Origin: a plasmid
Sequence record: NZ_CP044080.1
Length of the DNA: 64,000 nucleotides
Direction: 5' to 3' (one strand)
A model generated the notes under the pieces. That model saw only the letters and a list, made by a program, of their open reading frames with translations. It had not been told where the DNA came from and made no database searches. A program made the translations under genes and the position numbers. Below are positions 3,230 through 33,891 of the stretch, in pieces (positions within the stretch are counted from its first letter, which is position 1; each line of letters opens with the position of its first letter).

Positions 3230-3266
3230 GATGGGCCGCCCCGCGCGCGCGCCGCAAGACGGATCG

Positions 3267-6460: not shown

Positions 6461-7117
6461 ATGGAGACGCTTCGGTTCGCGCTCGACAACCTGCCGCAGA
6501 TCATGGACCGCACCGTCGAGCACGTCTCGCTGGTGGGCGCGGCCATCCTGATCGCGATCGCGACAGGCGTGCCCATCAGCATCGCCATCACCCAGAACGC
6601 AACCGTCGCCCGACGCGTGCTTTACGTCGCGGCGATCATCATGACGATCCCGTCCATCGCCTTCTTCGGCATCCTGATCCCGATTCTGTCGCCCTTTGGC
6701 CATGGCATCGGCTATCTGCCGGCGCTGATCGCGCTGGTGTTCTATTCGCAGCTGCCGATCATCCGCAACACCTACACGGCGATCATGAACATTGACCCGG
6801 CGCTGCGCGACGCGGCGCGCGGCATGGGCATGACCGCCCTGCAACGGCTGTGGCAGGTCGAGATTCCGATGGCCATGCCCGTGATCCTGAACGGGGTGCG
6901 CAACGCGGTCGTGCTGACCATCGCCATCGCCGCCATCGCGACCTATATCGGCGCAGGCGGGCTTGGCACCTTCATCTCGCGCGGGATTTCCCAGACCGAC
7001 AGCCGCCAGCTGATCACCGGCGCGGTCGCGGTCAGCCTGCTAGCCATTACCGCCGATCTTTTCCTTTTGCTGCTGCAACGGCTGCTGACCTCGCCCGGTC
7101 TGCGCACCCGCCACTGA
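6461..7117 (+). CDS. ABC transporter permease (OpuCB/ProW-like, glycine betaine/choline/carnitine type)
   Basis: Multi-TM protein with the EAA-like loop of betaine ABC permeases (NIDPALRDAARGMGMTALQRLWQVEIP). Start at METLRF. Confidence 0.8.
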   Translation: METLRFALDNLPQIMDRTVEHVSLVGAAILIAIATGVPISIAITQNATVARRVLYVAAIIMTIPSIAFFGILIPILSPFGHGIGYLPALIALVFYSQLPIIRNTYTAIMNIDPALRDAARGMGMTALQRLWQVEIPMAMPVILNGVRNAVVLTIAIAAIATYIGAGGLGTFISRGISQTDSRQLITGAVAVSLLAITADLFLLLLQRLLTSPGLRTRH

Positions 7118-7133
7118 ACCACAGGACAAACGC

Positions 7134-8240: not shown

Positions 8241-8983
8241 CGATGACGGGCGCGCATCTGTCGAATGTCGTCATGCAGGCGCTGCGGCTTGCGGGCTACG
8301 CGCTGATCTTCCTGGCCGGCATCTGGTTCCACTCCAGTGGCGCCATGGCCGCGATGGGCGAATATGCCGAGGACATCCGCTATCTGACCGTCCAGCACCT
8401 GCAGCTGACCGCGATCTCGGGGGCGCTGGCGATCCTGATCGGGATCCCCATCGGCGTGCTGCTGGCGCGCCGGTCGCTGGGCATCCTGGGGCCGGTGGTG
8501 GCGCAGGTGGTGAACCTGGGCACGACGATCCCGACGCTGGCGATCCTAGCGCTGGCCATGACGGTGATGGGCCTTGGCACGCCGCCCGCGATCTTTGGCC
8601 TGACGGTGCTGACGCTGCTGCCCATCGTCCTGAACACCATCGCGGGCATCAAAAGCGTGCCGCCCGCGCTGATCGACGCGGCGCGCGGCATGGGCATGAC
8701 CGGCTGGCAGATCCTGTGGAAGGTGGAACTGCCCTATGCGCTGTTCGTAATCTTCGCCGGCATCCGCACGGCGCTGGCGATCAACATCGGCACCGTGCCG
8801 CTGGCCTTCCTGATCGGCGGCGGGGGCCTGGGTGAGCTGATCTTTACCGGCATCGACCTGATGGAGCCGGGCCTGCTGCTGGCCGGCGCGATCCCGACCG
8901 CGGCGCTGGCCGTCGCCGTCGACCTGCTGGGCGCGCAGGCCCAGTACTGGCTGGTGCCCAAGGGCATCAACCCGCTGCGCTGA
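8237..8983 (+). CDS. ABC transporter permease (OpuCD-like)
   Basis: Second permease, paralogous to 6461-7117 (IDAARGMGMTGWQILWKVELP). ATGA overlap with the ATPase stop. Confidence 0.8.
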   Translation: MTMTGAHLSNVVMQALRLAGYALIFLAGIWFHSSGAMAAMGEYAEDIRYLTVQHLQLTAISGALAILIGIPIGVLLARRSLGILGPVVAQVVNLGTTIPTLAILALAMTVMGLGTPPAIFGLTVLTLLPIVLNTIAGIKSVPPALIDAARGMGMTGWQILWKVELPYALFVIFAGIRTALAINIGTVPLAFLIGGGGLGELIFTGIDLMEPGLLLAGAIPTAALAVAVDLLGAQAQYWLVPKGINPLR

Positions 8984-9011
8984 AACCATAAAACCAACAG
9001 TGGAGAGAAGC

Positions 9012-9893
9012 ATGACCCTGAAACGCCTTTTCGCCAGCGCCCTTGTCGCGCTTGGCCTGGCCCTTCCTGCCGCCGCGGCGCCCCTGGTCGTGGGCGGCAA
9101 AAACTTCACCGAACAGCAGCTGATCGCCGAGATCACCACCCAGCTCTTGAAATCCAAGGGCTTCGAGGTCGACAAGCGTGCAGGCCTTGGCACCGCGCCG
9201 CTGCGCCAGGCGCTCGAGGCCGGGCAGATCGACCTTTACTGGGAATATACCGGCACCTCGCTCATCACCTTCAACAAGATCGAAGAGAAGATGGACGCCG
9301 ACCAGACCTATGCCAAGGTCAAGGAGCTTGACGGCGAAAAGGGCCTGGTCTGGCTGAACCCGTCCAAGGTGAACTCGACCTATGCCATCGCCATGCGCGC
9401 GGCAGATGCCAAGGAAAGGGGCATCGCCACGATCTCGGATCTGGCGGCCAAGATCAACGGTGGCGAGGCGCTGACCTTCGGCAGCAACGCCGAATTCTAC
9501 GCCCGGCCGGACGGGCTGAAGCCGCTGGAAAAGCTGTATGGCTTTGAATACGGCCGCGCCAACGTTAAGCGCATGGACACCGGACTGGTCTATCAGGCGC
9601 TCAAGGACGGGCAGGTCGACAGCGGGCAGGTCTTTGCCACCGACGGACGCATCCCGGCCTTCGACTTCGTGGTCCTCAAGGACGACAAGGGGTATTTCCC
9701 CAGCTATGCAATGACCCCGGTCGTGCGCAAGGACATCCTGGACGCCAACCCGCAGTTGGCCGACCTGCTGAACGACCTGTCGGGCCGCCTGGACGACGCG
9801 GCGATGATGGCGCTGAACAGCCAGGTGGACGTGGACAAGAAATCGGTCGAAGCGGTGGCCTCGGACTTCCTCAAGGCCCAAGGCATGATCTGA
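9012..9893 (+). CDS. Osmoprotectant/quaternary-amine ABC substrate-binding protein (OpuCC/OsmX family) with signal peptide
   Basis: Signal peptide MTLKRLFASALVALGLALPAAAAP. Conserved betaine-binding-protein blocks (LVVGGKNFTEQQLIAE; DLYWEYTGT). Confidence 0.8.
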   Translation: MTLKRLFASALVALGLALPAAAAPLVVGGKNFTEQQLIAEITTQLLKSKGFEVDKRAGLGTAPLRQALEAGQIDLYWEYTGTSLITFNKIEEKMDADQTYAKVKELDGEKGLVWLNPSKVNSTYAIAMRAADAKERGIATISDLAAKINGGEALTFGSNAEFYARPDGLKPLEKLYGFEYGRANVKRMDTGLVYQALKDGQVDSGQVFATDGRIPAFDFVVLKDDKGYFPSYAMTPVVRKDILDANPQLADLLNDLSGRLDDAAMMALNSQVDVDKKSVEAVASDFLKAQGMI

Positions 9894-9954
9894 TCCCGCT
9901 TCGGGGCCTGCGTTTCGTCGCACAGGCCCCCTCTTTTTTGCCGAAAGTCCCGCC

Positions 9955-10788
9955 ATGTCCTGCCTGACCGTCGCCGCCGCGCAGATCGCCTGCGAACCGG
10001 GCGATATTGCCGCGAACCTTTCCCTGCATCTTGATGCCATCTCGGACGCCCGGCGGCGCGGGGTGGGGCTGCTGGTTTTCCCGGAACTGTCGCTGACCGA
10101 CTACCTGTCGCGGCCCGACACGGGCCGGCTGGCCCGGCGGCTGGACGATGCCGAGCCTGCCGCCATCGCCCGCGCGGCCGGCGACATGGCGGTGTCCTTC
10201 GGCATGATCCTGGCCGAGCATGGGGCCGTCTTCAATGCACAGGTGCTGGTTGGCACCGGCGCCGCGCCTGCGGTCCATCGCAAGCTGAACCTGCCGCATT
10301 ACGGCAATCTTTACGAGGCAGATCATTATGATGCAGGCCAAAAGCTTGATGTTTTCGAGACCTGCGTCGGGCGCCTTTCGACGCTGATCTGTGCCGACAG
10401 CTGGAACCCGGCGCTGGTCTGGCTGGCCGCGCATCAGGCGCCGGACCTGTTGGCGCAGCCCATCGCCTCGGCCCGCAGCGCGGTGGGGGGCGAGTTCGAC
10501 AACCCCGCCGGCTGGCGCATCAACCTGCGCCATACGGCGATGACCTATGGCCTGCCGACGATCATGTGCAACCATTGCGGCACACGCGGCGGGCTGGAGT
10601 TCTGGGGCGGCTCGCGCGTCCTCGATCCCTTCGGGCGCGAGCTTGTCGAACTGGACGATGGCCCTGGGCTGGCGGTGGCCGAGGTCGATGCCGCAGCGAT
10701 GGCCCGCGCCCGCGCGCTGCTGCCGACGGTGCGCGACGCGAACCCGGCGCTGATCGCCACGCTGATGCGGGCTGGCGGGCTGACCTAG
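9955..10788 (+). CDS. Carbon-nitrogen hydrolase (nitrilase-superfamily amidohydrolase)
   Basis: Catalytic-triad context of the CN-hydrolase fold (VFPELSLTDY Glu; LSTLICADSWNP Cys). Confidence 0.7.
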   Translation: MSCLTVAAAQIACEPGDIAANLSLHLDAISDARRRGVGLLVFPELSLTDYLSRPDTGRLARRLDDAEPAAIARAAGDMAVSFGMILAEHGAVFNAQVLVGTGAAPAVHRKLNLPHYGNLYEADHYDAGQKLDVFETCVGRLSTLICADSWNPALVWLAAHQAPDLLAQPIASARSAVGGEFDNPAGWRINLRHTAMTYGLPTIMCNHCGTRGGLEFWGGSRVLDPFGRELVELDDGPGLAVAEVDAAAMARARALLPTVRDANPALIATLMRAGGLT

Positions 10789-11807
10789 GCCAGCACCACC
10801 GCGATATCCGACAGGGCGCGGCTGGAGCAGGCAAGGATATAGCCCTGGGCTTGCTCCTCGGGCGTGATGCCGCCATTCGCAGCCATCACTACCTGGCCCG
10901 AGACCAGCTTGACCATGCAGGTGCCGCACATGCCTTCGCCGCAGCCGCAGGGGATGATGACGCCGTGGCGCAGGCTGGCTTGCAGCACGCTTTCGTCGGG
11001 GCGGATCGCCACGTCGCGGCCGGCGACCGTCATCGCGAAAGCCGGGCCGTCTTGGGCCACGGGGGCCGGGGCCGCCACGGGAACCGGCGCCCCGCCAAAG
11101 CTTTCGGTATGGAACTGTGCCTTGTCGCCGCCCTCGGCCGCGTGGATCAGCTGCGCCTCGGTCATGAAGCCCTGGGGCCCGCAGCAGAACACCTCGCGCC
11201 GCCCCAGATCGGGCAGGGCAGCGGCCAGCAGGGTGCGCGAGATGCGGCCGCGATAGCCGAACCAGCCGGGCGCCGGTCGGGTGACGCTGACCGCCACGCT
11301 GAGGTTTGGCATCCGCGCCTGCAATTCGGCCAGTTCGGCGGCGAACAGCACCTCGGCCGGCGCGCGGGCGGCGTGGAACCAGGCCACATCGGCCAGCGGC
11401 TCGGTCGCCGCAAGATGGCGCAGCATGGCGATCATCGGCGTCGCCCCCGACCCGCCCGAGACGAAGGCCAGCCGGTCATGGCATCGCAGCGCCAGCGTGA
11501 AATGGCCGCGCGGGCTGCGCGCCTGGACCCGCGCGCCGGGGGTCAGGTTCGCGTGCAGCCAGCGCGTCGCGCCGCCCTCGGCCTGCGCCTTGATCGTCAG
11601 TGCCAGGTCGCCATCCGTCCCGCCCGAGATGGTGAAGCTCCGCCAGACCGGCCCGCCGGGCAGCGGCACCCGCAGCACCAGCGCCTGGCCGGGGACAAAG
11701 CCCACCGGCGCCGCGCCGCGCAGCCGAAAGCTGCGGATCGTCGGGGTTTCATCCGCCACGCCGACACAGGTCAGCTCCAGCAGTCCGGCGTCGCCTGGCA
11801 TGGTCAT
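10785..11807 (-). CDS. Oxygenase reductase component: FNR-like FAD/NAD(P)-binding domain plus C-terminal plant-type 2Fe-2S ferredoxin (GbcB-like)
   Basis: RxFS flavin-binding motif (RSFTIS), NAD-binding region (AFVSGGSGATPM) and a C-terminal 2Fe-2S Cys cluster (CGCGEGMCGTCMV...C). 4-nt overlap with the upstream Rieske gene. Confidence 0.75.
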   Translation of the reverse strand: MTMPGDAGLLELTCVGVADETPTIRSFRLRGAAPVGFVPGQALVLRVPLPGGPVWRSFTISGGTDGDLALTIKAQAEGGATRWLHANLTPGARVQARSPRGHFTLALRCHDRLAFVSGGSGATPMIAMLRHLAATEPLADVAWFHAARAPAEVLFAAELAELQARMPNLSVAVSVTRPAPGWFGYRGRISRTLLAAALPDLGRREVFCCGPQGFMTEAQLIHAAEGGDKAQFHTESFGGAPVPVAAPAPVAQDGPAFAMTVAGRDVAIRPDESVLQASLRHGVIIPCGCGEGMCGTCMVKLVSGQVVMAANGGITPEEQAQGYILACSSRALSDIAVVLA

Positions 11808-13036
11808 TCCGCCGCCATCCGCGCCGCCGGTCCGCCGATGTGATCGGCCATCTTGCCCGCATACCAGTCCGAGAAGTTCCGCAGCATGAATTCGGAGGGC
11901 GCATAGGGGCCGGGCTTGTAGGCGCGGGACAGGATGCCGCGATGGTTGTTCTCGGCCAGGATCCGGTCCTCGTCATTGGTGGCGGTCCAGACCTCGGTCA
12001 GGCGCTGGATGTCGTAATCGACGCCCTCGACGGCGTCTTCGTGGACCAGCCAGGTCGTCCTGACGGCGGTGCGGTTGGCCGACAGCGGCAGGACGCGGAA
12101 GTGGATGATGTGGTCGGACAGGAAATGGTTCCAGTTGTTCGGCACGCGGAACATCCGCACCGAGCCAAGGTCGGGTTCGGTGAAGTCGGCGAGCAGCTTG
12201 TTGCAGGCGAGCCCCCCGTCCATGGTGAAGGACAGGCAGTTTTCGTTGAAGGGCAGACGGATGCAGCGGAACTCCAGCCCGCCGTCGGCCGGCTTGTGCG
12301 GCAGGCCCAGCCGGTCCCAGCGGTCGGTCGAACGGCCCATCAGCCCTTGGAACTGCGCCGCCACCAGCGGGTCGTCGGGCAGCGCGAATTCGACCAGCGT
12401 GACCAGCAGTTCCGGGTGGTTGCCCGCGCAATGATAACATTCGCGGTTGTTTTCGATCACCAACTTCCAGTTCGCTTCCTCGACGATAGTGGTCGAAAAG
12501 GCGACCTTGGTGCGATCGGGCCTGTGCGGTTCGATATAGGGCGTGACGCCCGCGCGGAACGCGGCCAGCGACGGCGGCTGGTCGGCGATGCAGACATAGA
12601 CCATGCCGCAGATCACCTCGACATGGACCGGGGCAAGACCATGCGCGGCCTTGTCGAAACCCTCGGGCATCTGGCGGGCGTTGATCAGCCTGCCGTCCAG
12701 TTCATAGACCCACTGGTGATAGGGGCAGACCAGCCGGTTCGCGCGACCCTGTTCCTTCTGGCAGATCAGCGATCCGCGATGGCGGCAGGTGTTGTGGAAT
12801 GCCGCCACCGCGCCGTCGCGGTTGCGCAGCACAACGATGGGATTGTCGCCGATCTGCAGGGTGACATAGTCGCCCGGGCGCGGGATCTCGGCCAGGTTGC
12901 AGGCGAACAGCCAGTCGGTTTCGAACACCGCCTTCATGTCGGCCCGAAAGATCTCCTCATCGACATAGAAGTCGCGCGGCAGCGAATGGCCGGGTTTGCG
13001 GTCCTGCAAGAGCTGGGCGATCCTGTCGTTCAGCAT
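11804..13036 (-). CDS. Rieske 2Fe-2S non-heme iron oxygenase, quaternary-amine N-demethylase family (GbcA / Stc2 / CntA-like)
   Basis: Rieske motif CRHRGSLIC...CPYHQW and a mononuclear iron site (NNRECYHCAGNHPEL). Lies beside a betaine-type ABC transporter and a GbdR-like regulator. Confidence 0.8.
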   Translation of the reverse strand: MLNDRIAQLLQDRKPGHSLPRDFYVDEEIFRADMKAVFETDWLFACNLAEIPRPGDYVTLQIGDNPIVVLRNRDGAVAAFHNTCRHRGSLICQKEQGRANRLVCPYHQWVYELDGRLINARQMPEGFDKAAHGLAPVHVEVICGMVYVCIADQPPSLAAFRAGVTPYIEPHRPDRTKVAFSTTIVEEANWKLVIENNRECYHCAGNHPELLVTLVEFALPDDPLVAAQFQGLMGRSTDRWDRLGLPHKPADGGLEFRCIRLPFNENCLSFTMDGGLACNKLLADFTEPDLGSVRMFRVPNNWNHFLSDHIIHFRVLPLSANRTAVRTTWLVHEDAVEGVDYDIQRLTEVWTATNDEDRILAENNHRGILSRAYKPGPYAPSEFMLRNFSDWYAGKMADHIGGPAARMAAE

Positions 13037-13316
13037 GTCGATGTCCTTCGCGTGGGCCTGTCGGGCGGATGGGCGCGTATCCCCCGATCTTGCATCCGGG
13101 CCCGCCCGGCGCAGGGCAGGAAACCGTCATTTCGGGTCAGGAAGCCGTCGCGGGCCGCTTGGCCAGGTCACGAAAGAAATGCAAAAGAAATGAAAATTGC
13201 ACGCAATACCCTGTGTTTTCAGTCAGGTCCGGCGGAAAAGAGGCTTGACCCACGGCGCCGTCGCTCCAAACTTTGATGATGGAGATGCGAATTTCGATCA
13301 ACCCGACGTCGATGGT

Positions 13317-13789: not shown

Positions 13790-14377
13790 CTAGCGAGATC
13801 GCTCCAGCCGGCGCAGCATGTCGTGCGACCAGGCATAGGCCGGATCAAGGCTCAGGGCGTGGCGAAAGGCGGCGCGGGCCTCGTTCCGGCGCCCCAGCGC
13901 GGTCAGGCACATGCCCAGGTTGTGGTGCACGACCGCCCGCCTGGCATCCAGCGCCAGCGCACGGCGGTAAAGCGGCAGCGCCTTGGCAGGGCGGTCCATG
14001 TCGTAAAGGACGTTCGCGGCCTCGTTCCATGCGGGTTCATAGGCCGGGTCAAGTCCCAGTGCCACGTCGAAGGCCGCCAAGGCCGGCACGAACCGCCGCA
14101 GGTCGCGTAGCACCAGGCCCAGATTGCCCCAGTTCATCGCACGGCGCGGCCCCAGCCGGATGGCGGCGGCAAAGGCCTCGTGCGCCTCGGCCATCCGGCC
14201 CTGGGTCCACAGCACCGAACCCAGGCCACGCCAAGCGTCCTCGCCCGCCAGTTGCGCACGAAATGCCGCCTCGGCCGCGTCCAGCCGGCCCGCCCGCCAC
14301 AGATCGAAGGCGTGGGCCAGGCCGGGGTCGGCGGGGCGCCAGCCCTCCCACGCCGTGGGCGGTCCGTCAGCCGGCAA
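13790..14377 (-). CDS. Tetratricopeptide-repeat protein (last gene of the RiPP-like operon)
   Basis: Several 34-residue TPR-like units (W/LG/Y spacing, AxxAFxxALxLDPxY). 11-nt overlap with the upstream gene. Confidence 0.6.
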   Translation of the reverse strand: MPADGPPTAWEGWRPADPGLAHAFDLWRAGRLDAAEAAFRAQLAGEDAWRGLGSVLWTQGRMAEAHEAFAAAIRLGPRRAMNWGNLGLVLRDLRRFVPALAAFDVALGLDPAYEPAWNEAANVLYDMDRPAKALPLYRRALALDARRAVVHHNLGMCLTALGRRNEARAAFRHALSLDPAYAWSHDMLRRLERSR

Positions 14378-15005
14378 CGTGAAAGCACCCCGCCAGCATC
14401 ACCAGCCGTTCCCCGGCGGCCAGCGGCGGACGCAGATGCGCATGGCGCGAACCGAAGATCGCCGCCGCGCGATTGCTGCGCGCGGTCAGCCGCATCGCCA
14501 GTCCCGTGGCCGAGTTGTCGCCCCGAAAGATGAACAGCTGCATGCCGGGGCTGGGCTCGACCCCGTCGGGCCAGGCCGCGTCCAGATAGGTCAGCAGGTT
14601 GTATTTGCAGCTGTCGGCCTTGTCGCAATGCTCGCCCATGTGTTCGGAGGGGCCGGTGTATCGCGTGTAGCAGGTCGCGCTCCAGGACGGGGCGAGGCGT
14701 TCGCCGGTCAGCGCGTGCAGCCAGGCCACGACGGCGTCCGAGGACAGATAGCCCCGCGCGACGGGGCCCAGATGGGCGCGGCGGTTGTCCTGCGCGATCT
14801 CGCCCCGGTCGCGGCTGCCGGTCAGCTGCCAGCTTTCGGCATCAAGCTGACCCAGCGCTTCCTCCAGCAGGGCGCGGTGCAAGGCGGCGTTCAGCGCAGG
14901 GGGCCCAAGGACCGTGACGCCGGTGGCGCGGAAGGCGTCGACATGCGCCGGCCCAAGCGCGGAGGGGTCGGCGAAGACGGCGTCGGCAATGGGGGCGTCA
15001 GGCAT
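14367..15005 (-). CDS. Hypothetical protein, possibly a 2OG-Fe(II)-oxygenase-like (HxD...H) tailoring enzyme
   Basis: Candidate facial-triad residues (GEHCD...FGSRHAH). Translationally coupled to its neighbours by 8-nt and 11-nt overlaps. Confidence 0.4.
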   Translation of the reverse strand: MPDAPIADAVFADPSALGPAHVDAFRATGVTVLGPPALNAALHRALLEEALGQLDAESWQLTGSRDRGEIAQDNRRAHLGPVARGYLSSDAVVAWLHALTGERLAPSWSATCYTRYTGPSEHMGEHCDKADSCKYNLLTYLDAAWPDGVEPSPGMQLFIFRGDNSATGLAMRLTARSNRAAAIFGSRHAHLRPPLAAGERLVMLAGCFHVAG

Positions 15006-16194
15006 GGGCGGTCTCCTTCGGCAGGGCCTCGACGGCTTGGCGCAGGTCCTCCATCAGCCCGGCGCCGGCCGGGGTGGCGGTGCCGTTGTCGGACAGCACC
15101 CGCCAGCCCTGGCGCGTGTTCGCCGCCTGCCGGGCCAGCACCCCGCGCGCGAAGCGGGCCGAGGCCCCGCCCCGCGCCGCAAGCCGGTCATACCAGGCGC
15201 AGACGTTCAGAAAGGCGTGCACGCCCAGCAGCAGCCCGTCCAGCGGGCGCTTGTCGCTGCGCCAGGGGCTGTCAAAGCCCGCTGCCTCGGCTGCAGGGTC
15301 GGTCGCAACCACCAGCGGATCGACGGCCTTGGCCCAATGCATCCGCACATGGCTGGATTCGTGGCACAGGAGGTCGCCCACCGTTTCCGGCGCCCCCGCC
15401 GTCATCATGATCGTGCCGCAGAGCGATTGCGGCGAATGGCTGCGCTCATAGCCGCGCGGCGCCAGCAGGACCAGGCCCCGGACATGCCGCGCCAGCGTCT
15501 CGGCCGCCGCGGGCCAGACCTGCGCCATCAGCGCAAGGCCAGTCGCGATGCGGGCCATGGCGGCATGCAGCACCTCGCCCTCTGCCAGAGCGAAGGGCGC
15601 CAAGGCCGCCCGCACCGCAGGGTCGGCGTTCAGCACGTCAAGGCCGCCGATCCGGGGGGCTGCGTGGAACAGGGCGTTCCCGGTTCCGGGCGGTGCGGGG
15701 ATGCCGGTCGCGAAGGTTGCCGATACGCCGTCGTCGCGCATCAGCCCGACGCGGCCGCCGCTTTGGCGCAGGGCGATGACCCGCGCGCCGGGGGCGTGCA
15801 GGACGATGCGCAGATGCGGCAGCATCAGATCCGCCGCCAGATCGCCGCCGGTGAACACAAGGGTCAGATCCTCGATATCCGGGGCGCCGATCAGGTGGCG
15901 GGCCAGGGCTGCGCGTCGCTCGGCCAGGCTGCGCGGGTCCTTGACCCCGTCCGGCGCCGTGACCCCGGTATCGAGCGAGGCGAGCGGATGGCCAAAGACC
16001 CGCAGCCGCGCCGGTTCGGGGCAGGCCTTCAGGGCGCGCGCGACCTCGACCGCGCAGGGCTCGTCCGCGCCCTCCAGCATGTCCGCCGCGCGGCGCGCGC
16101 AATCCCGGGCCCAGAGCGCCTGCAGGTGGTCGATGCCCTGGCCGGGGGGGCCTGGAAAGACCAGCCCTGTCAGGTCGGATACCGGGCCGGTCAT
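14998..16194 (-). CDS. HExxH-motif peptide-modification protein (family that co-occurs with FxsB-type radical SAM/SPASM maturases; alphaKG-HExxH beta-hydroxylase-like)
   Basis: Single HExxH (LLCHESSHVRMHW). About 400 aa. ATGA overlap with the radical SAM gene stop. Confidence 0.65.
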   Translation of the reverse strand: MTGPVSDLTGLVFPGPPGQGIDHLQALWARDCARRAADMLEGADEPCAVEVARALKACPEPARLRVFGHPLASLDTGVTAPDGVKDPRSLAERRAALARHLIGAPDIEDLTLVFTGGDLAADLMLPHLRIVLHAPGARVIALRQSGGRVGLMRDDGVSATFATGIPAPPGTGNALFHAAPRIGGLDVLNADPAVRAALAPFALAEGEVLHAAMARIATGLALMAQVWPAAAETLARHVRGLVLLAPRGYERSHSPQSLCGTIMMTAGAPETVGDLLCHESSHVRMHWAKAVDPLVVATDPAAEAAGFDSPWRSDKRPLDGLLLGVHAFLNVCAWYDRLAARGGASARFARGVLARQAANTRQGWRVLSDNGTATPAGAGLMEDLRQAVEALPKETAHA

Positions 16195-17759
16195 GCCGCC
16201 ACCCGCGCGGGCGTGAAATCGTGCTGGAACCGCACGCCGCCCCCTTCGAAATAGGAACAGCGGTTCAGGTGGTCGAACGCCGCCGCGTCAAAGGACAGAA
16301 GATGCATCAGCCAGGGATAAAGCGTCTTGTAGAACGCACATTCCGGCGTCTTGTGGCGCACGGTCCCATAGCTTTCCCAGGCCTGCGCCGAACAGCCCGA
16401 CTGGCAGAGCTGCCGATAGGGGCAGACCGCACAATCGTCGAAATCCGCCGGCCGGCGGGACCGGATCTCGGCGATGCGGGCAGAGCGGCGGGCCGGCTGG
16501 GACAGGCTCTCGATGCCGTCGTCGAAGATGTTGCCCAGCCGCAAGCCCGGCGATTGCGTGGCCCGCCCGCAGGGATAGATATCGCCGTTCGCCGCGACGG
16601 ATTGAAAGCTGTCGCCCGCCCCGCACTCGGCCCGCATGCAGCGGGTGCGGCGCTGCTTGCTGGTCAGAAAGCGGCACATGGAATGGATGTTATCCTCAAG
16701 CAGCAGGTCGCGCCGTGCGATGACGCCGCGCAGCAGGGCCTGGAAGAACGCGATGATCTGGTCCTGGGTCAGCCCCACCCGGTCCCAGTTCTTGCGCGCG
16801 TCGCCCAGATAGGCGACCGGGTTCACCCGAAAGCCGTGGATCGCGTGCCCCAGCATAAAGGACACCAGCCCGTCGGGATCGCCGATGTTCATGCGGTTCA
16901 GCACCACGAGGCCCCCGAAGGGGACGCCGCCCTGCTGAAGCAGCTCGATCCCACGCATCAGCGCCGGAAAGCTGGCCTTGCCGTTCACCATGGGCCGCCC
17001 GCTGTTCTGCGCCTGCGCGCCCCCGTCCAGCGAGATGCCCACGCGGATGTCATTGTCGCGCAGCCAGTCCACGCGTTCGGGCGTCAGCAGCGTGGCATTG
17101 GTCTGGATCGACAGGAACACCGTCCGCCCGCTGGCCCCCGGGTGGTTGCGGATATGATCCACCAGCCGCTGCATGATCGCGAATTTCAGGAACGGCTCGC
17201 CCCCGGCGAATTCGAATGCCAGCACCCGCGCCTCGGTCATGGCAAAGGCCAGGTCGACCGAACGCAAAGCGATGGTTTCGTCCATCGCGGGCATCTTCTG
17301 GTTCGCGCCCGCCAGGCAATAGGGACAGGCGAGATTGCATTTCTCGGTCAGCAAAAGCTCGACCAGGTGGCCCTCGTCATAGTTCGGCCCGTCGGCGAAC
17401 ATCCCGGCATCGACCGCGCGGGCACCGTTCAGCGCGATCAGCCCGCGCCGCCACAGATGCGCCGCGAAATCCAGCGCGGCGTCGGCGCTGTCCATCCGGG
17501 CCGCCAGGGCGCCGAAATCCCGCCCGTCCATCCAGCGGTGCAACGCGGCCTCGTCCGGGTTCAGGAACGCCCATGAGGCGCTTTCGGGATGGATCGCCAG
17601 GGTCTCGCCCTGGACCCGGACCTGATCGACGCCCTCGGTCGACAGTCTTGTGTCAGGACGCAGCGTGACCTGGCCGAAGGGGGCATAGGTCTTGCCCTGG
17701 GTCGCGCCCAGCCAAGGCGCCTCGGCCGCGTCGCGAGAGGGACAAAAGACATAGCGCAT
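16191..17759 (-). CDS. Radical SAM/SPASM-domain peptide maturase (FxsB / three-residue-cyclophane-forming-enzyme-like) with a ~130-aa N-terminal extension
   Basis: CxxxCxxC (CNLACPYC), a G-rich SAM motif (FEFAGGEPF) and a C-terminal SPASM Cys cluster (CGAGDSFQ...YPCG...CAVCPYRQLCQSGCSAQ). Start MRYVF at 17757-17759 overlaps the stop of the upstream gene by 1 nt. Confidence 0.85.
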   Translation of the reverse strand: MRYVFCPSRDAAEAPWLGATQGKTYAPFGQVTLRPDTRLSTEGVDQVRVQGETLAIHPESASWAFLNPDEAALHRWMDGRDFGALAARMDSADAALDFAAHLWRRGLIALNGARAVDAGMFADGPNYDEGHLVELLLTEKCNLACPYCLAGANQKMPAMDETIALRSVDLAFAMTEARVLAFEFAGGEPFLKFAIMQRLVDHIRNHPGASGRTVFLSIQTNATLLTPERVDWLRDNDIRVGISLDGGAQAQNSGRPMVNGKASFPALMRGIELLQQGGVPFGGLVVLNRMNIGDPDGLVSFMLGHAIHGFRVNPVAYLGDARKNWDRVGLTQDQIIAFFQALLRGVIARRDLLLEDNIHSMCRFLTSKQRRTRCMRAECGAGDSFQSVAANGDIYPCGRATQSPGLRLGNIFDDGIESLSQPARRSARIAEIRSRRPADFDDCAVCPYRQLCQSGCSAQAWESYGTVRHKTPECAFYKTLYPWLMHLLSFDAAAFDHLNRCSYFEGGGVRFQHDFTPARVAA

Positions 17760-18622
17760 CAGGAGCTTCCTTGTAGAACAGGGACGAGGATGCGAACGCG
17801 GTCGCCATCGTGCCGAGGGCCGGGATGCCATCCGTCGGGGCCCAGGGCGATGTCGCGGCGCATCCGCGCCTCGATCCCGGCCAAAAGCGCGGGGGCCGTC
17901 CGCGCCAGCCCCCCGGCCAGACGCCGCGCGCGGGCAAGGCTGGTGGCGCAGGTCCAGGAACAGGGGAAATGTTCGGTCAGGACGGGACCGGCGTAGCGGG
18001 CAAAGACGTTCAACTCCCACGGCATCTCTGCCCCCTCCGGCCCCAGCCGCATCCGGCCCAGATCGCCCGCGCAATGCGTCACTGCCTGCGGCCAGTCGCG
18101 CAGGAACGCCTCGATGCAGCAGGGCGGATATCCCAGCGCAAGGCCCATGACCCGGTCCCAGCCCCGCGCCTCGGCCAGCCACAGCAGCCAGGCCAACGAC
18201 GCTGAGGCCGAGACGGCGACCGCCCGCCATTCCCCCGCCGCGCCGCTTGCCGGCACCCGCGCCGCGGCAAGGTTCGCATAGCCCCCCAGGCCCGCGTCCC
18301 GCTGGGGCAGGAAGGCCCAGGCCGAGGGCATGGCGGTCAGCGACCGCCGCCGCGCCCAGTCGCAGACGCCGGCGATCCAGGGCTCGGGCCCGTGCAGCAG
18401 GACTGCCGGCCGCAAGCCGGCGGCCAGCATCTCAAGCTCAGCCACGGTGCCGATGGGGGCGCCGGGCCCGGCCGCGGGGATGGCCGGGCCCGGCAGCTCG
18501 TCCTCGGGCCCATCCGGGATCGCGGCCAGCAGCGCGTCGGGCAGTCCCAGGGCCTGGGCACGGGCGCGCACCGACAGTCCCCCTTCGCCGGACCTTGGCG
18601 AGGGCGCTTTGGCGCGGTGCAT
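17759..18622 (-). CDS. Conserved hypothetical Cys-rich protein in the RiPP-like operon (candidate partner/peptidase/scaffold)
   Basis: Open frame between the precursor stop (7-nt gap) and the radical SAM start (1-nt overlap). Motifs GYPPCCIEAF, HCAGD and FPCSWTCATS. Confidence 0.5.
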   Translation of the reverse strand: MHRAKAPSPRSGEGGLSVRARAQALGLPDALLAAIPDGPEDELPGPAIPAAGPGAPIGTVAELEMLAAGLRPAVLLHGPEPWIAGVCDWARRRSLTAMPSAWAFLPQRDAGLGGYANLAAARVPASGAAGEWRAVAVSASASLAWLLWLAEARGWDRVMGLALGYPPCCIEAFLRDWPQAVTHCAGDLGRMRLGPEGAEMPWELNVFARYAGPVLTEHFPCSWTCATSLARARRLAGGLARTAPALLAGIEARMRRDIALGPDGWHPGPRHDGDRVRILVPVLQGSS

Positions 18623-18629
18623 GGGCGGC

Positions 18630-19256
18630 CTAGCGCCGGATGCGGGTGCCGCGCACCGTCATGTCAAAGGCCCCGGTCGCGGGCACATCGACGCGCAACC
18701 CGCCCGGCAGCGTGACCCGGGTCAGATCGCGGCCGGGGTTGAGGACCGTCGAGGGGTCGAAATTGGCATGCCCGCCCCCGTTCACGAAGCCCGGCGGCCC
18801 CGAGTTCACATGCGAGCCCGCAATCGAGCCGGGGTCGAAATTCGCGTGCCCGCCGCCGTTCACGAAACCGGGTGGGCCGGAATTCACATGCGTTCCCGTG
18901 CCCCCCGAGGGGTCGAAGTTCGCATGGCCCCCGCCGTTCACGAAGCCCGGAGGCCCCGAGTTGACATGCACCCCGGCAATCGAGCCGGGATCGAAGTTCG
19001 CGTGCCCGCCGCCGTTCACGAAACCGGGTGGGCCCGAATTGACATGCGCCCCCGAGATGCCGCCCGGATTGCGGATCGCGCCGATGGCGCTGGCCACCTC
19101 GGTGCGCAGGATCGCGGTCAGGTCCTTGAGCGAAAGATCCGCCAGCTTGGTCTCGGGCGCAAGCGACCTGCCTTGGGATGCAGGGCGGTCGGCCTCGGGA
19201 TCACTGCCTGGGGTCGTCGATTGGCCTTCCTTGGAACCCTTGGGTTCTTGTGCCAT
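18630..19256 (-). CDS. Putative multi-core RiPP precursor: ~68-aa leader, four tandem 26-aa core repeats (HVNSGPPGFVNGGGHANFDP) and a ~40-aa C-terminal tail
   Basis: GGAGA Shine-Dalgarno 8 nt upstream of the ATG. Four ~78-bp DNA repeats (18750-19052) differ mainly at synonymous positions, so the peptide repeat is conserved. Immediately upstream of the maturase genes. Confidence 0.6.
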   Translation of the reverse strand: MAQEPKGSKEGQSTTPGSDPEADRPASQGRSLAPETKLADLSLKDLTAILRTEVASAIGAIRNPGGISGAHVNSGPPGFVNGGGHANFDPGSIAGVHVNSGPPGFVNGGGHANFDPSGGTGTHVNSGPPGFVNGGGHANFDPGSIAGSHVNSGPPGFVNGGGHANFDPSTVLNPGRDLTRVTLPGGLRVDVPATGAFDMTVRGTRIRR

Positions 19257-19416: not shown

Positions 19417-20616
19417 CTATTGCCCGGCCGGGATCAGGGACGGATCGGCGGCCAGCGTCGTTCCGGGACTGGGCTGGGGCTCGGCGCCCTCTTCGAGTAC
19501 GCGGGCCGGCGCCGTCACCACGGCGCCCAGCGTGTGCAGCGTGCCGGCCGCGACCATGAAGATGCTGCCTCCAGAGCCGTTGTCGCTGGTCAGCCGCTGG
19601 CCCTGTGCCAGCTTGCGCCCGATCAGCCGCACGATGTCGGGGCTTTCGGCAAAGCGCGAATGGTGCGTGCCGCCCGGCACGTCGATCTGGCTCAGGTCGA
19701 TGGCGTCGATCCCCGCCTGCAGCAGGGCGGTGCGATAGGGTTCGCGCGAGGGGTCGATTTCGCCCACGCGCTCGACCCGACCCGCGATCAGCCGCGACAG
19801 ACCCAGTGCGCGGTCGTCCTTGGCCATGAAGATGGTGAAATGCGGGCGCGGGGCGGCCATTTCAATGAACTGGCGGGAAAACACCTCGATGTCGATATCG
19901 GGCGAGGCGAGGACCACGTCACGGATCTTGGGATTCACGGGGCCGCTGCGGATGCTCATCTGGCGCAGCGATTCCATGGTCAGGAAGGCGCCCATGGAAT
20001 GGGCCAGGATGGTGATCTGCGTGACCGAGGAGTCGTCCGCCAGGATTCGCAGCGACTGTTCCAGCGCGGTGCGGGAATAAAGCGCGCTTTCGCGGTCATA
20101 GTTATAGCCGACGGGGCTTCCACGCGACGGCCAGGTGAACAGGATCGGTGTCGCCGCCACATCGCCGTCATGCGCGATCTGGGCCAGCCGATAGACCGCC
20201 TCGCCATAGGTCGTGTTGAACCCGTGAACGAACAGCAGCACATGGCCGCCGACGCGGTGCTGGCGCATCCAGGCCCGGCCCTGCGCCACCGAACTGATGT
20301 CCTGCACCTGGCGGACGTGGAAATCGGTCGTCGGCTGGGGCGGACGGGTGCGCGGCCACTGGATCGTGCCACTGGGGCGGTTCGCGGGGATCCCCACCTT
20401 GACCGCGTCGAGATGCAACTGCGGGTCGCGCCGGCCGCCGTAACGCTCGGCCCGGTCGGTCAACATCTGGCGGTTGGTGGCCACCAGAACATCGACCGCA
20501 GGGCCGGTCTCGACCGGGGCCACGACCGGCTGCATCAGCCCGGTCGGCCGGGGCGAGCAGGCCGACAGCATTCCCGTCAGCAGGACCAGAAGGATCGCCA
20601 GCCGCACCGGCATCAA
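19417..20616 (-). CDS. Alpha/beta-hydrolase-fold lipoprotein (DUF900-type serine hydrolase)
   Basis: Lipobox (LLTGMLSAC), nucleophile elbow (LAHSMGAF) and the alpha/beta hydrolase order. Confidence 0.65.
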   Translation of the reverse strand: MMPVRLAILLVLLTGMLSACSPRPTGLMQPVVAPVETGPAVDVLVATNRQMLTDRAERYGGRRDPQLHLDAVKVGIPANRPSGTIQWPRTRPPQPTTDFHVRQVQDISSVAQGRAWMRQHRVGGHVLLFVHGFNTTYGEAVYRLAQIAHDGDVAATPILFTWPSRGSPVGYNYDRESALYSRTALEQSLRILADDSSVTQITILAHSMGAFLTMESLRQMSIRSGPVNPKIRDVVLASPDIDIEVFSRQFIEMAAPRPHFTIFMAKDDRALGLSRLIAGRVERVGEIDPSREPYRTALLQAGIDAIDLSQIDVPGGTHHSRFAESPDIVRLIGRKLAQGQRLTSDNGSGGSIFMVAAGTLHTLGAVVTAPARVLEEGAEPQPSPGTTLAADPSLIPAGQ

Positions 20617-21722: not shown

Positions 21723-22958
21723 TCAGGACGGGCCGGCCGGTGCGAGCTGCCGGGCAATCTGCGCGCCCGCCGCGCCCCAGCGGGCATGCAGGGCCGGGGC
21801 GCCGCCCTGCTGCCAGGACCGCCAGGCCTCGGCCGCCGGGATGCTGCCGAACCAGCCGATGCCCTGCGGCGCGGCGGGGGTATGCAGCACCTCGCGCTCG
21901 ACCAAAAGGCCGTCCTCGACCAGGATGGTGCGAGCGATGCGCGGGCGCTCGGGCGGTGGCAAGGCGGGCAGGTCGTCGGGAAAGTCCCGCCGCGCTGCCC
22001 AGAAGGGCTCGGCGCGAAAGCGTGGCTCGGCACGCAGGAAATCACGTCCGATCCGCGCCTGGTGCAGGCTGGTCTGCAGCGCCCGTTGCGTAAGGAAGCG
22101 GCGGCAAAGGGATTGCGCGCCGGGCCGGGCCGCCAGCGTGCGGCGCACGGCCGCGACGGCAAGCGCACTCGACACCGCCCAGAACTGGCCGTGGCCCGAA
22201 AGCGGGTCCATGGCAGCCAGGGCATCGCCGACGCGCAGCAGGTCCAATGCCCCGACCGGCCCGGGCAGGCGCGGCGCCGCCTCGCGCACCAGAGGCTGGC
22301 CGGAAAGCGGCGCATGAGCCAGCGCCGGCTCGGCCGCGGCCATGGCGGCTTGCAGCCGGCCAGCCGGGCTGCCGTCGCCGGCGGCGTCCAGCACCGCCTG
22401 GATCCAGACCCGTCCATCGGGCAACGCCACCCGCCACAGCCAGCCCTGCGGCAGCGCCACCAGCCGAATGCCGGGAGGCAGGTTGGCCCGCACCCAGCCG
22501 GACAGCGCCACCGTGGCCGGCGCCTTGCCGATGCTTGCACGCGCGCGGCGACCTCGCGCGTCGATGACCATGGGCGCGCGCAGTCTGTCGCTGCCCAGCC
22601 ACACGCCGCCCGGCTCGGGCCGGCCGCTGCCGATGGCCAGCCGAGCGCCAGCAGCCTGGGCGCAGCGGCGCAGATGGGCGTCCAGCGCAGCGCGCTCAAC
22701 CACATGTTCGGCATTGCTTTCGCTGACGCCCGCCCAGTCCACCTGCCGCCTGAACGGGCCGAAAATGCCGGCAAACCCGTCGATCAGCCCCTGGCCCGCC
22801 AGCCAACGGTGCAGGCGCGGGCTGAGCCCCTCGAGCCTCGGCCGGTCACGGGCGGGATCGATCAGCAGCACGCGCAGCCCGTCGCGCGCCGCAAGCCAGG
22901 CCGAAACCGCGCCTGCCGGCCCACCTCCCAGCACGATCAGATCGGCATCCGCGCCCAT
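21723..22958 (-). CDS. FAD-dependent oxidoreductase/monooxygenase (flavin halogenase / geranylgeranyl-reductase-like fold; QhpG-like candidate)
   Basis: N-terminal GxGxxG (DLIVLGGGPAGAVSAWLAARDG). About 411 aa. Divergent from the cytochrome/radical SAM pair. Start at MGADADLIV. Confidence 0.6.
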   Translation of the reverse strand: MGADADLIVLGGGPAGAVSAWLAARDGLRVLLIDPARDRPRLEGLSPRLHRWLAGQGLIDGFAGIFGPFRRQVDWAGVSESNAEHVVERAALDAHLRRCAQAAGARLAIGSGRPEPGGVWLGSDRLRAPMVIDARGRRARASIGKAPATVALSGWVRANLPPGIRLVALPQGWLWRVALPDGRVWIQAVLDAAGDGSPAGRLQAAMAAAEPALAHAPLSGQPLVREAAPRLPGPVGALDLLRVGDALAAMDPLSGHGQFWAVSSALAVAAVRRTLAARPGAQSLCRRFLTQRALQTSLHQARIGRDFLRAEPRFRAEPFWAARRDFPDDLPALPPPERPRIARTILVEDGLLVEREVLHTPAAPQGIGWFGSIPAAEAWRSWQQGGAPALHARWGAAGAQIARQLAPAGPS

Positions 22959-23160
22959 GCGCCGTTCCCTTTCCTTACCCTGCCTTGCCTGAATGAAAGG
23001 CACCTTGCGCCGGATTGCCGCCCGCGAACCTGACATTTGCGGCCAAAGCCACAGGGCGCGCGACGATGCGTCGCGACTCTGGCCGGGAATGACAAGAACC
23101 TGCCCGCCGCTGGCGCTTTTCTGGACCTCATCGCGATCGGGCCATTCCCGACAAGCCACA

Positions 23161-24129
23161 GGAAGCCGCCAGATGAAGCCACTGACCCGAACCGCCCTGG
23201 TCTCTGCCGCCGCCCTTGCCGCCGCCCCGGCGCTGGCGGTCAGCGGCGAGGACGTCCTGCAAAACGCCTGCGCCGCCTGCCACGTCAAGCACGAAGACGG
23301 CCGGTGGGAACGCATCGACGCCGTCCGCAAGACGCCCGAGGGCTGGGACATGACGGTGACGCGGATGATGCGCAATCACGGCGTCGCGCTGGAACCGCAA
23401 GAGCGGGCGGCTGTGGTCCGCTACCTGTCCGACACCCGCGGTCTGACGCCCGAAGAAGCCGAGGGGCGCCGCTATATCCTGGAACGCGAACCAGTGGCCT
23501 TCGACGAGGGTCCCGATACGCTGATGACCCAAACCTGCGGCCGATGCCATTCCTATGCCCGCGTCGCCCTGCAACGCCGCACGCCCGAGGATTGGGCGCA
23601 TCTGGTGAACTTCCACCTGGGCCAGTTCCCGACGCTGGAATACCAGGCGCTGGCGCGGGATCGCGACTGGTGGGGCATCGCCCAGGCCGAGATCATTCCC
23701 TTCCTCGCCAAGACCTATCCGCTGGGCGAGGCGCCGCCCGCCTTTGCCGGCGACGCTTCGGGCGACTACGTCCTGGCTGGGCGCCAGCCGGGGCGTGGCG
23801 ACTATACCGGACGGCTGGCGCTGACGAAAGCGGGTGACGATTACGCCGTGACCATGACGCTGGACTTCGCCGACGGCAGCGCAAGCTACAAGGGCACCGG
23901 CCGCATCCTGGGCGCCGGCGAATGGCGCGCGACGCTGAGCGACGGCAAGACCGGGATCCGCCAGGTCCTTGTTTTTCACGACGGCCGCTTCGACGGGCGC
24001 TGGTACCACGCCGACAGCGACGTGATCGGCGGCAGACTGGCGGCGGTGACGATGCGGGGCTTTTTACGCCAGGCGACGCCGGGCCGAACCCGGAACGCCC
24101 GATGCAGACCAACAACGCGGGCAACCTGA
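23161..24129 (+). CDS. Diheme c-type cytochrome with signal peptide (QhpA-like alpha subunit of quinohemoprotein amine dehydrogenase; probably frameshifted near the 3' end)
   Basis: Signal peptide MKPLTRTALVSAAALAAAPALA. Two CxxCH motifs (CAACH, CGRCH) about 90 residues apart. The apparent authentic C-terminus continues in another frame to 24227. Confidence 0.55.
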   Translation, partial: GSRQMKPLTRTALVSAAALAAAPALAVSGEDVLQNACAACHVKHEDGRWERIDAVRKTPEGWDMTVTRMMRNHGVALEPQERAAVVRYLSDTRGLTPEEAEGRRYILEREPVAFDEGPDTLMTQTCGRCHSYARVALQRRTPEDWAHLVNFHLGQFPTLEYQALARDRDWWGIAQAEIIPFLAKTYPLGEAPPAFAGDASGDYVLAGRQPGRGDYTGRLALTKAGDDYAVTMTLDFADGSASYKGTGRILGAGEWRATLSDGKTGIRQVLVFHDGRFDGRWYHADSDVIGGRLAAVTMRGFLRQATPGRTRNARCRPTTRAT

Positions 24130-24204
24130 AGGTCATCGCCACCGTGGACACGGGTGGCGTGCCGCTGACCGCCGAGGCGCATCTTTACGCCACGGTTCAG
24201 CGCT

Positions 24205-28793: not shown

Positions 28794-28865
28794 TACGTGT
28801 AGAGCCCAAGAAGCCTTTATAGGCGCCCTTCAGCGCATCAGCAATCAGCGGTCGGTATCGGACGC

Positions 28866-33862: not shown

Positions 33863-33891
33863 AGCACCCGCGATCAAATCGGAACGAACGA

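Follow-up and report, generated by a model that had tools for sequence, protein, structure and literature searches.

RiPP biosynthesis routinely relies on radical SAM/SPASM enzymes with a fused RiPP recognition element (RRE). RREs are also found as stand-alone proteins, such as PqqD and the lasso-peptide B1 proteins TfuB1 and TbiB1, whereas the RRE described here is fused to the enzyme. The groove between strand 3 and helix 3 of the RRE holds the substrate in CteB and the enzyme's own C-terminal tail in TigE; in published comparisons the binding of peptide or tail differs among TigE, CteB, SkfB and SuiB, and thus an RRE fold does not guarantee its use as an RRE (PMC10878394). Triceptide synthases cross-link aromatic-X2-X3 motifs, His (HAA, HNR, HTK) and Phe included (PMC11499958); the substrates of GrrM/OscB, YhhB, HaaB, HtkB, XyeB and FxsB carry such motifs, often repeated. 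His and Asp of a cyclophane that has already been closed are hydroxylated by an aKG-HExxH enzyme (PMC12636437), and in ChlB/ChlH, as far as the system is described there, the cyclophane-forming radical SAM enzyme is fused to an aKG-HExxH beta-hydroxylase (PDB 9GM3/9GMC; Morishita et al. 2024, via PMC12636437).

The window analysed here comprises 64,000 nucleotides of a plasmid (NZ_CP044080.1). The gene at 16191..17759 on the minus strand encodes a protein of 522 aa (RefSeq WP_028719643.1) and, in our view, it is probably the radical SAM/SPASM maturase of a six-gene RiPP-type cassette, with an RRE that docks a repeat precursor and with a triceptide-like chemistry. The open reading frame and its translation bear out the preliminary description, which had placed a radical SAM/SPASM maturase with an N-terminal extension at this position. 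Pfam Radical_SAM (PF04055) matches residues 137-301 with 57.9 bits (cut-off 29.5), Pfam SPASM (PF13186) matches residues 379-447 with 24.4 bits (cut-off 21.5) and Fer4_12 is above its cut-off as well. The CX3CX2C motif for the radical SAM [4Fe-4S] cluster, CNLACPYC (17316..17339, minus strand), had been described correctly but miscounted slightly: it is found at residues 141-148, not near residue 135, and C141, C145 and C148, the cysteines of the superfamily motif, are invariant in the alignment of homologues. The full cysteine complement claimed for the SPASM region is also there: C374, C379, C397, C443, C446, C452, C456 and C474 (16338..16640, minus strand) are invariant or nearly so in 39 homologues. 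Their spacing, CX4C-X17-C ... CX2CX5CX3C ... C with C379-X12-G-X4-C397, is that of the SPASM subfamily (7-8 Cys; CX9-15GX4C ... CX2CX5CX3C ... C) and agrees with anSME/CteB-type SPASM domains. From this pattern, two auxiliary clusters are predicted, both fully Cys-ligated; C6, C362 and C501 are not conserved. An AF2 model of the whole protein (pLDDT 92.7, pTM 0.92) has a partial TIM barrel with structural matches, and CteB, anSME, TigE and ChlB are its best matches in Foldseek. In an NCBIfam search with the protein, no equivalog was reached.

The N-terminal extension of about 130 residues (17370..17759, minus strand) had been proposed to be an RRE. The fold is indeed predicted, but the extension is not one domain; it consists of an arm (residues 1-37) that probably packs on the catalytic body, the RRE (38-105) and a linker (106-130). 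The check proposed at the time, a wHTH RRE fold in this region, was positive in the predicted structures: residues 38-105 (17445..17648, minus strand) adopt a PqqD-like fold. Both the model of the whole protein and a model of residues 1-128 alone (pLDDT 90.5) have strands at 45-49, 52-57 and 62-66, followed by helices at 68-77, 82-89 and 92-104, which is the RRE topology of three antiparallel strands and then three helices. The extension is kept in 39/39 aligned homologues, with M1, E13, P27, W63, E70, G106 and N126 invariant, and a profile of residues 1-128 picked out 68 cluster representatives from 1.84 billion proteins; in most cases the match is N-terminal in a protein of about 480-540 aa, and shorter fragments occur as well. 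Sequence searches did not connect the domain to Pfam PqqD or to solved RREs. Pfam at E<=10 gave no family for residues 1-135, PqqD included; the PqqD family has no detectable sequence similarity to the domain. The domain profile gave chance-level matches only against all PDB sequences (SunS, E 0.8), and Foldseek with the domain found nothing at E<=0.001, the best match (E 0.015) not being significant alone. One distant relative (P0239) shares this N-terminal domain, and its alignment with the HxsB and SCIFF-maturase models, which starts at about residue 31-34, would provide a transitive sequence link to these maturases. When the domain profile was run locally against the other cassette proteins and against QhpD, which is also encoded within the window, no further RRE-like domain came up.

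The most conserved residues of the domain, W63 and F65 in strand 3 and F98, L102, R104, R105 and G106 in helix 3 or just after it, line up with the groove used in CteB and TigE. This supports the RRE-groove reading, and we infer that the groove binds the precursor. It is possible, although unlikely, that the substrate docks mainly elsewhere and that the domain, though folded like an RRE, has a structural or regulatory role, for example in holding the enzyme's own C-terminal tail, the precursor being recognised by the barrel or presented by protein X or the TPR protein of the cassette. The tail in the groove of the TigE crystal structure (PMC10878394) and a short strand near the C-terminus of our full-length model (residues 508-510) would fit such a role, and the two conserved cassette proteins could be adaptors. 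However, across phyla no part of the domain is better conserved than the groove residues, and the domain is kept in every homologue.

The cassette encodes, in this order, the repeat precursor, a Cys/His-rich, distantly DUF483-like protein X, the radical SAM protein, an aKG-HExxH beta-hydroxylase, a 2OG oxygenase and a TPR protein. Wherever the contig allows, this order (A-X-B-C-D-E) is the same in 22 genomes of several phyla, which include Paracoccus, Marinobacter, Nitrosospira/Nitrosovibrio, Nitrospira and Acidobacteria as well as Cyanobacteria, Myxococcales, Chromatiales and Longimicrobiales. Start and stop codons of cassette genes overlap (TGATG, ATGA, 8 nt), which argues for an operon; a scan of 13.0-19.6 kb for promoters and terminators gave nothing better than shuffled sequence. 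Downstream of the radical SAM gene, and overlapping its stop codon (ATGA), is the gene of the aKG-HExxH-type peptide beta-hydroxylase (14998..16194, minus strand, 398 aa), which has the motif HESSH at residues 278-282 and matches TIGR04267 with 89.6 bits (cut-off 40); the RefSeq name agrees. It is followed by the gene of a probable 2OG-Fe(II) oxygenase (14367..15005, minus strand, 212 aa), conserved in the cassette and labelled '2OG-Fe(II) oxygenase' in UniRef, in which the motif H126-x-D128 ... H190 ... R192 can be read; it has no match in Pfam or NCBIfam. The last gene (13790..14377, minus strand) encodes a TPR-repeat protein of 195 aa (Pfam TPR_1, TPR_2, TPR_8) that is conserved in the cassette as well.

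The candidate precursor, a protein of 208 aa (18630..19256, minus strand), is annotated as 'hypothetical' and is matched by no Pfam or NCBIfam model; homologous repeat proteins are encoded at the same position in 20 loci. It consists of a leader (residues 1-70) with the amphipathic segment LADLSLKDLTAIL, four core repeats HVNSGPPGFVNGGGHANF (residues 71-166; 18759..19046, minus strand) with 8-aa spacers between them, and a conserved C-terminal follower (residues 167-208; 18633..18758, minus strand) that contains the element RVTLPGGLRVDVPATGAFDMTVRGTRIRR. This layout of leader, multiple cores and follower is typical of RiPP precursors. Altogether, 83 such cores were found in 19 precursors, with 2-8 copies each and the consensus H-x-N-S-G-P-x-x-[F/H]-x-N-x-x-G-H-A-[N/D]-F. 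H-x-N, [F/H]-x-N and H-A-[N/D] are present in 83/83 cores, as is expected of aromatic-X2-X3 precursors; Cys is present in none of the cores, and most precursors are devoid of Cys altogether. An element related to that of the follower, TLPDGxxVxIPAxG...RGFxIxR, is found at the end of 15 of the 20 precursors. Gammaproteobacterial precursors, which have a signal-peptide-like N-terminus, carry a similar element (PDGRRVSVDEV...RMRL) before the repeats, and one betaproteobacterial precursor has neither leader nor follower element, so these elements are not universal.

The three aromatic-x-Asn-type triplets in each core, together with the lack of Cys, suggest a triceptide-like cross-linking of an aromatic ring to a beta-carbon. 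The curated models of triceptide enzymes did not reach their cut-offs (GrrM/OscB 86 versus 310, YhhB 74 versus 445, AmcB 94 versus 425), and the 25 best families listed for the radical SAM protein include neither XyeB nor FxsB; as no cyclophane-synthase model was reached, the proposed chemistry comes from the substrate sequence alone. Models of other maturases score higher (DynA 151, PapB 150, anSME 135), and judged by its sequence the protein is no closer to cyclophane synthases than to thioether or sulfatase maturases. In the alignments with the GrrM/OscB, YhhB and AmcB models (362-369 positions), model positions 4-12 correspond to residue ~137 of our protein, so that these models stop short of the N-terminal extension. 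Structurally, the radical SAM domain of ChlB is clearly related (Foldseek E ~1e-15, sequence E 5.6e-8), and the ChlB/ChlH system also pairs a radical SAM/SPASM enzyme with an aKG-HExxH hydroxylase for one precursor with aromatic-x-x triplets. ChlB/ChlH is a fusion, however, whereas the cassette has two separate genes and adds the 2OG oxygenase, the DUF483-like protein and the TPR protein; the core motif differs too. Since the solved ChlB domain chains have about 375 residues and the match starts at ChlB residue 14, compared to residue 137 here, they have no room for an N-terminal domain of ~130 residues. CteB (SCIFF thioether maturase, PDB 5WGG/5WHY) and TigE (methyl-cyclopropylglycine synthase, PDB 8VPO) share only 12-16% identity with our protein, which has an extra arm of 37 residues before the RRE; the SCIFF model gives 95 bits versus a cut-off of 425. 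Thioether (sacti-/ranthipeptide) chemistry of the CteB/PapB type was rejected because there is no Cys in any core. In cyclopropyl synthases (TvgB/TigE) the GYW motif gives a Tyr ligand to auxiliary cluster I (PMC10878394), and this chemistry was rejected because our protein has neither GYW nor G[YF]W.

Taken together, a reaction sequence can be envisaged in which the RRE groove grips a conserved stretch of the precursor, whose gene lies two genes upstream; this stretch would be the amphipathic leader LADLSLKDLTAIL or, which we favour, the C-terminal TLPxG...V.V follower. The four HVNSGPPGFVNGGGHANF cores would thereby be tethered close to the active site, where the 5'-deoxyadenosyl radical may remove hydrogen from a side chain; the C-beta-H of Asn is the likeliest site in each [H/F]-x-N triplet. 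The resulting radical would add to the adjoining His or Phe ring, with the electron passing to an auxiliary cluster, to give three-residue cyclophane (triceptide-like) cross-links. The constrained peptide would then be hydroxylated by the aKG-HExxH enzyme and the 2OG oxygenase. The bound segment, the chemistry and the order of these steps are inferred.

A rather less probable extension of this scheme is that the cassette yields not a variable antibiotic-type peptide but a conserved product with a function of its own, a His-rich module with several cross-links and hydroxyl groups that is either released as many small cofactor or metallophore copies or retained as a repeat protein, the RRE reading a movable, beta-hairpin-like element that follows the cores in most lineages and precedes them in others. 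Paracoccus, Marinobacter, Nitrosospira, Nitrospira and Acidobacteria have virtually the same 18-residue core, with two to three His per copy, no recognisable protease or exporter is encoded in the cassette, gammaproteobacterial precursors have the signal-peptide-like segment and several of the hosts are nitrifiers, all of which points in this direction. For a metallophore, copper would be the obvious guess.

The docking domain as such is ordinary, and the cassette is an apparently undescribed variant of known RiPP-type systems. No curated model was found for the radical SAM enzyme, the precursor or protein X. A full-text literature search with the core peptide strings, whose scope did not extend to the networks and supplements of Morishita 2024, Ruel 2025 and Sugiyama 2022, returned no paper, and nothing relevant was found in literature combining HExxH or SPASM with the host genera. 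The radical SAM gene is of value as the anchor of a compact six-gene cassette that spans phyla and is a sound lead for genome mining; its precursor is unusual in how little the multi-copy core varies. Should the cross-links be triceptide-like, the enzyme would belong to a branch of cyclophane synthases that carries an RRE and works alongside a separate aKG-HExxH hydroxylase and another oxygenase, and it would help in enzyme engineering and in understanding how a single enzyme handles many cores. If the product is a conserved cofactor or binds metal, its physiology would be of interest in nitrifiers and in Paracoccus yeei, an opportunistic pathogen in which the cassette is plasmid-borne.

The gene directly upstream of the radical SAM gene had been noted before as a Cys-rich gene overlapping it. 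The overlap is real, and the gene encodes a conserved cassette protein: protein X (17759..18622, minus strand, 287 aa) is present in 23/23 loci searched, with H77, C168, C169, H218, C221 and C225 invariant. DUF483 is a weak Pfam match in 14/14 members (best E 1.1e-4), and a profile of the family matched nothing in the PDB. Proteins are the substrates of SPASM enzymes such as anSME and QhpD, and it is conceivable, but quite improbable, that the substrate is another protein such as the adjoining protein X, changed in an anSME/QhpD-like manner (thioether, oxidation). The overlap of the two genes, the invariant Cys of protein X and the place of anSME among the better sequence and structure matches of the radical SAM protein are in line with such a reaction. 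However, the members of the protein X family (282-433 aa) have an enzyme-like pattern of invariant His and Cys and no repeats, an RRE implies a peptide-like ligand, and the repeat protein has the layout of a RiPP precursor and is present in every complete locus. The likely substrate is the repeat protein, encoded one gene upstream of protein X.

Although the frame is open up to 18230 and a product of 679 aa (16191..18230), whose N-terminal extension would then have ~290 aa, is annotated in several GenBank records, we rejected this start as extremely improbable, because the start with MRY is at a column common to 38 homologues of many phyla, the 157 added codons overlap the conserved gene X in a different frame, GGAAG stands before the ATG at 17759, RefSeq has 522 aa and long spurious ORFs are expected at a GC content of 68-70%. 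The protein starts with MRYVFCPSRDAAEAPWLGATQGK (translation of the ORF 16191..17759, minus strand). The TGATG noted in the preliminary description proved to be real, with TGA (17761-17759) and ATG (17759-17757) sharing one A, and GGAAG is located 8 nt upstream of this ATG. A start of the type M-[RKN]-[YFW] is found at the same aligned column in 38/38 homologues (45-82% identity). Among the best 120 of 378 homologues most have about 520 aa and a query coverage of at least 93%, a few short fragments excepted, which, together with the matches of the N-terminal profile at the N-terminus of ~480-540-aa proteins, shows that the gene is not a chance reading frame.

All sequence features of the radical SAM/SPASM enzyme B that were named in the preliminary description were confirmed, on the minus strand. 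The ORF (16191..17759) encodes 522 residues with the N-terminus MRYVFCPSRDAAEAPWLGATQGK. CNLACPYC is indeed present, but at residues 141-148 and not near residue 135. The SPASM region has its full complement of cysteines (C374, C379, C397, C443, C446, C452, C456 and C474), all eight fully or almost invariant among 39 aligned homologues, in which C6, C362 and C501 are unconserved. Pfam places Radical_SAM at residues 137-301 (57.9 bits vs. a cut-off of 29.5), Fer4_12 at 135-240 and SPASM at 379-447 (24.4 bits vs. 21.5). The 1-nt overlap with the upstream gene is exact: TGA (17761-17759) and ATG (17759-17757) share one base, and GGAAG lies 8 nt upstream of the ATG. The frame is open as far as 18230, and several GenBank entries for Paracoccus yeei give B 679 aa; RefSeq gives 522 aa. 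The longer version (16191-18230, minus strand) is a mis-called start according to the homologue alignment, since 38 homologues from many phyla (45-82% identity) begin with M-[RKN]-[YFW] at one aligned column and the extra codons overlap the conserved gene X in another frame; at ~69% GC, long spurious ORFs are expected.

B is the third gene of a six-gene run on the minus strand, A-X-B-C-D-E, in which starts and stops overlap or abut. It is preceded by A, a repeat protein of 208 aa and candidate precursor (18630-19256), and X, a Cys/His-rich protein of 287 aa (17759-18622), and followed by C, an aKG-HExxH-type peptide beta-hydroxylase (14998-16194; TIGR04267, 89.6 bits vs. a cut-off of 40), D (212 aa, 14367-15005) and the TPR protein E (13790-14377). 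This order is kept in 22 genomes, wherever the contig is long enough; the hosts are Paracoccus, Marinobacter, Nitrosospira/Nitrosovibrio, Nitrospira, Sphingomonadaceae, Acidobacteria, Bryobacterales, Cyanobacteria, Myxococcales, Chromatiales and other Gammaproteobacteria, and Longimicrobiales. A DUF900 alpha/beta hydrolase gene (19417-20616, minus strand, 271 bits) immediately upstream of A is absent from the conserved cassette in the Nitrosovibrio and cyanobacterial loci. In public annotation A and X are each a "hypothetical protein" and B a generic "radical SAM/SPASM domain-containing protein". The conserved cassette member X, which in RefSeq starts 17 codons later (270 aa), has invariant H77, C168, C169, H218, C221 and C225 (GYPxCC ... 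HFPCxxxC), is weakly similar to DUF483 and gave no solved structural relative; it could harbor a metal site or be a Cys-His peptidase. D matched no Pfam or NCBIfam model, is named 2OG-Fe(II) oxygenase in UniRef, and has an HxD...H...R pattern resembling prolyl-hydroxylase-type 2OG oxygenases. Its target might be S-G-P-x-G, conserved in the cores (18-residue repeats) of A.

The N-terminal extension of B (~130 residues) is no local oddity. The best 120 of 378 homologues (E<=1e-10) are, apart from a few short fragments, mostly ~520 aa long and cover at least 93% of the query. Mean identity to B is 40-43% across residues 2-105, compared with 57-67% in the catalytic domains, and the extension is thus clearly under constraint. 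Searched against 1.84 billion proteins, a profile of residues 1-128 matched no more than 68 cluster representatives; in most of these the domain is N-terminal in proteins of ~480-540 aa, the remainder being shorter fragments. Ten representatives were scanned with NCBIfam; all hit models of radical SAM/SPASM maturases, none above a curated cut-off.

The extension had been suggested to be a RiPP recognition element (RRE), and structure prediction with AlphaFold2 turned out in favor of the winged helix-turn-helix fold, both for whole B (homologue alignment as input; pLDDT 92.7, pTM 0.92; numbered one below the protein because the input lacked Met1) and for residues 1-128 alone (pLDDT 90.5). Both models have a helix (7-21), a short strand (38-40) followed by an extended segment, strands 45-49, 52-57 and 62-66, and helices 68-77, 82-89 and 92-104. 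The three predicted strands and three helices are in the layout of PqqD-like RREs, and the extension very probably has this fold. We conclude that it comprises an arm (1-37), the RRE (38-105) and a linker (106-130). Pfam at E<=10 matched no family on the extension, and its profile gave no relevant match among PDB sequences. Sequence does offer a transitive link: the alignment of P0239, a distant relative sharing the domain, with the HxsB and SCIFF-maturase (CteB family) models starts close to the N-terminus of P0239.

The best-conserved positions of the domain are L54, W63 and F65 on strands 2-3, E70, and F98, L102, R104, R105 and G106 on and just past helix 3. [quoted passage not shown] The pattern in B fits a working peptide groove, short of proof of binding. 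The main rival is that the fold is present but not the main substrate dock, and radical SAM maturases do differ in how they use their RREs in the published comparison (PMC10878394). We consider it fairly likely that the RRE of B docks A. As far as fold and conservation go, the earlier interpretation is supported.

The closest structural neighbors of the B model are CteB (E ~8e-21, 463 aligned columns), anSME, TigE and the radical SAM domain of ChlB. B shares the RRE-rSAM-SPASM architecture of CteB and TigE but differs in substrate and in its extra arm. In pathway logic the cassette resembles ChlB/ChlH and other triceptide clusters, from which it is set apart by its fused RRE, a hydroxylase encoded by a gene of its own, and another three conserved genes. 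The solved chains of the ChlB domain (~375 residues) and the models for GrrM/OscB, YhhB and AmcB (362-369 positions) start within their own first 14 positions and meet B only from residue ~137 onward, so the extension has no counterpart in them. An RRE-type extension is ordinary for the enzyme class of B; more interesting is the cassette with its invariant multi-copy core.

In A, a leader of ~70 residues is followed by four copies of HVNSGPPGFVNGGGHANF with 8-residue spacers between them, and the protein ends in a tail of 42 residues. Its counterparts at 19 other loci have 2-8 copies of the 18-residue unit each. With the pattern H-x-N-S-G-P-x-x-[F/H/Y/W]-x-N-x-x-G-H-A-[N/D]-F, 83 cores were counted in 19 distinct precursors; the invariant positions are set by the pattern itself, although every visible repeat satisfies it and no degenerate extra units were seen in the spacers. 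Position 9 is F in 44 and H in 39 cores, position 17 N in 78 and D in five. The 20-mer HVNSGPPGFVNGGGHANFDP (core plus following DP) recurs unchanged in Alpha-, Beta- and Gammaproteobacteria, Nitrospira and Acidobacteria, while spacer sequences differ freely. No core sequence was found in published papers, in a search that did not reach all key triceptide literature. Most precursors end with a conserved element, TLPDGxxVxIPAxG....RGFxIxR; in gammaproteobacterial precursors it is absent from the C terminus and a similar PDGRRVSVDEV...RMRL precedes the repeats, after a signal-peptide-like N-terminus. Since all groups share the same RRE groove residues, we favor this movable PDG...V.V element as the presumed recognition sequence. 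The amphipathic segment L-x-D-L-[ST]-[IVL]-x-D-L of the leader occurs in only part of the family, and one betaproteobacterial precursor (L019) has eight cores, each after a ~27-residue helical-looking spacer, with neither leader nor follower (C-terminal tail).

The cores are rich in His, Asn and Gly, with 2-3 His and three aromatic-x-Asn triplets each (H-x-N, [F/H]-x-N and H-A-[N/D]). B stayed below every curated NCBIfam cut-off, with top scores of DynA 151 (cut-off 450), PapB 150 (340), anSME 135 (349) and nif11 130, followed among cyclophane synthases by AmcB 94, GrrM/OscB 86 and YhhB 74; its reaction is therefore not assignable from similarity. In aromatic-X2-X3 motifs, triceptide synthases bond the ring of the aromatic first residue to the C-beta of the third, with His-based (HAA, HNR, HTK) and Phe-based examples (PMC11499958). 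The sole aKG-HExxH enzyme with a structural study hydroxylates His and Asp once the cyclophane is in place (PMC12636437). With an HExxH hydroxylase encoded next to a radical SAM/SPASM enzyme, and [H/F]-x-N triplets repeated in A, the most economical proposal is that B would cross-link these triplets in a triceptide-like manner before hydroxylation; that the product contains such rings has roughly an even chance. C-N or C-O links, or another site of hydrogen abstraction, are possible. Cyclopropyl-synthase chemistry is unlikely, the GYW motif being absent, and thioether formation is excluded by the cores, none of the 83 having Cys.

The window is ~98% identical to a plasmid of P. yeei CCUG 46822. 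Just past E, ~11 kb (~2175-13147) are non-collinear with that plasmid and encode a GbcA/GbcB-like Rieske monooxygenase pair (10785-13036, minus strand) and a nitrilase-family protein (9955-10788, plus strand). Upstream of the cassette, at a distance of 4-8 kb, are genes for quinohemoprotein amine dehydrogenase (21723-25584): QhpG (21723-23375, minus), QhpA (22993-24129, plus; profile positions 6-288 of 510 only) and QhpD, a second radical SAM/SPASM enzyme (24205-25584, plus; 1-384 of 467 only), directly followed by an aldehyde dehydrogenase. From the partial coverage and this neighbor, a truncation or frameshift in the operon is possible. The stretch 28000-34000 has a GC content of 55-60% compared with ~69% and encodes polysaccharide-type enzymes, namely a WbsX/RgpF glycosyltransferase (30158-32443, minus) and a sulfotransferase-domain protein (32427-33443, minus); it was probably acquired horizontally, as an island.
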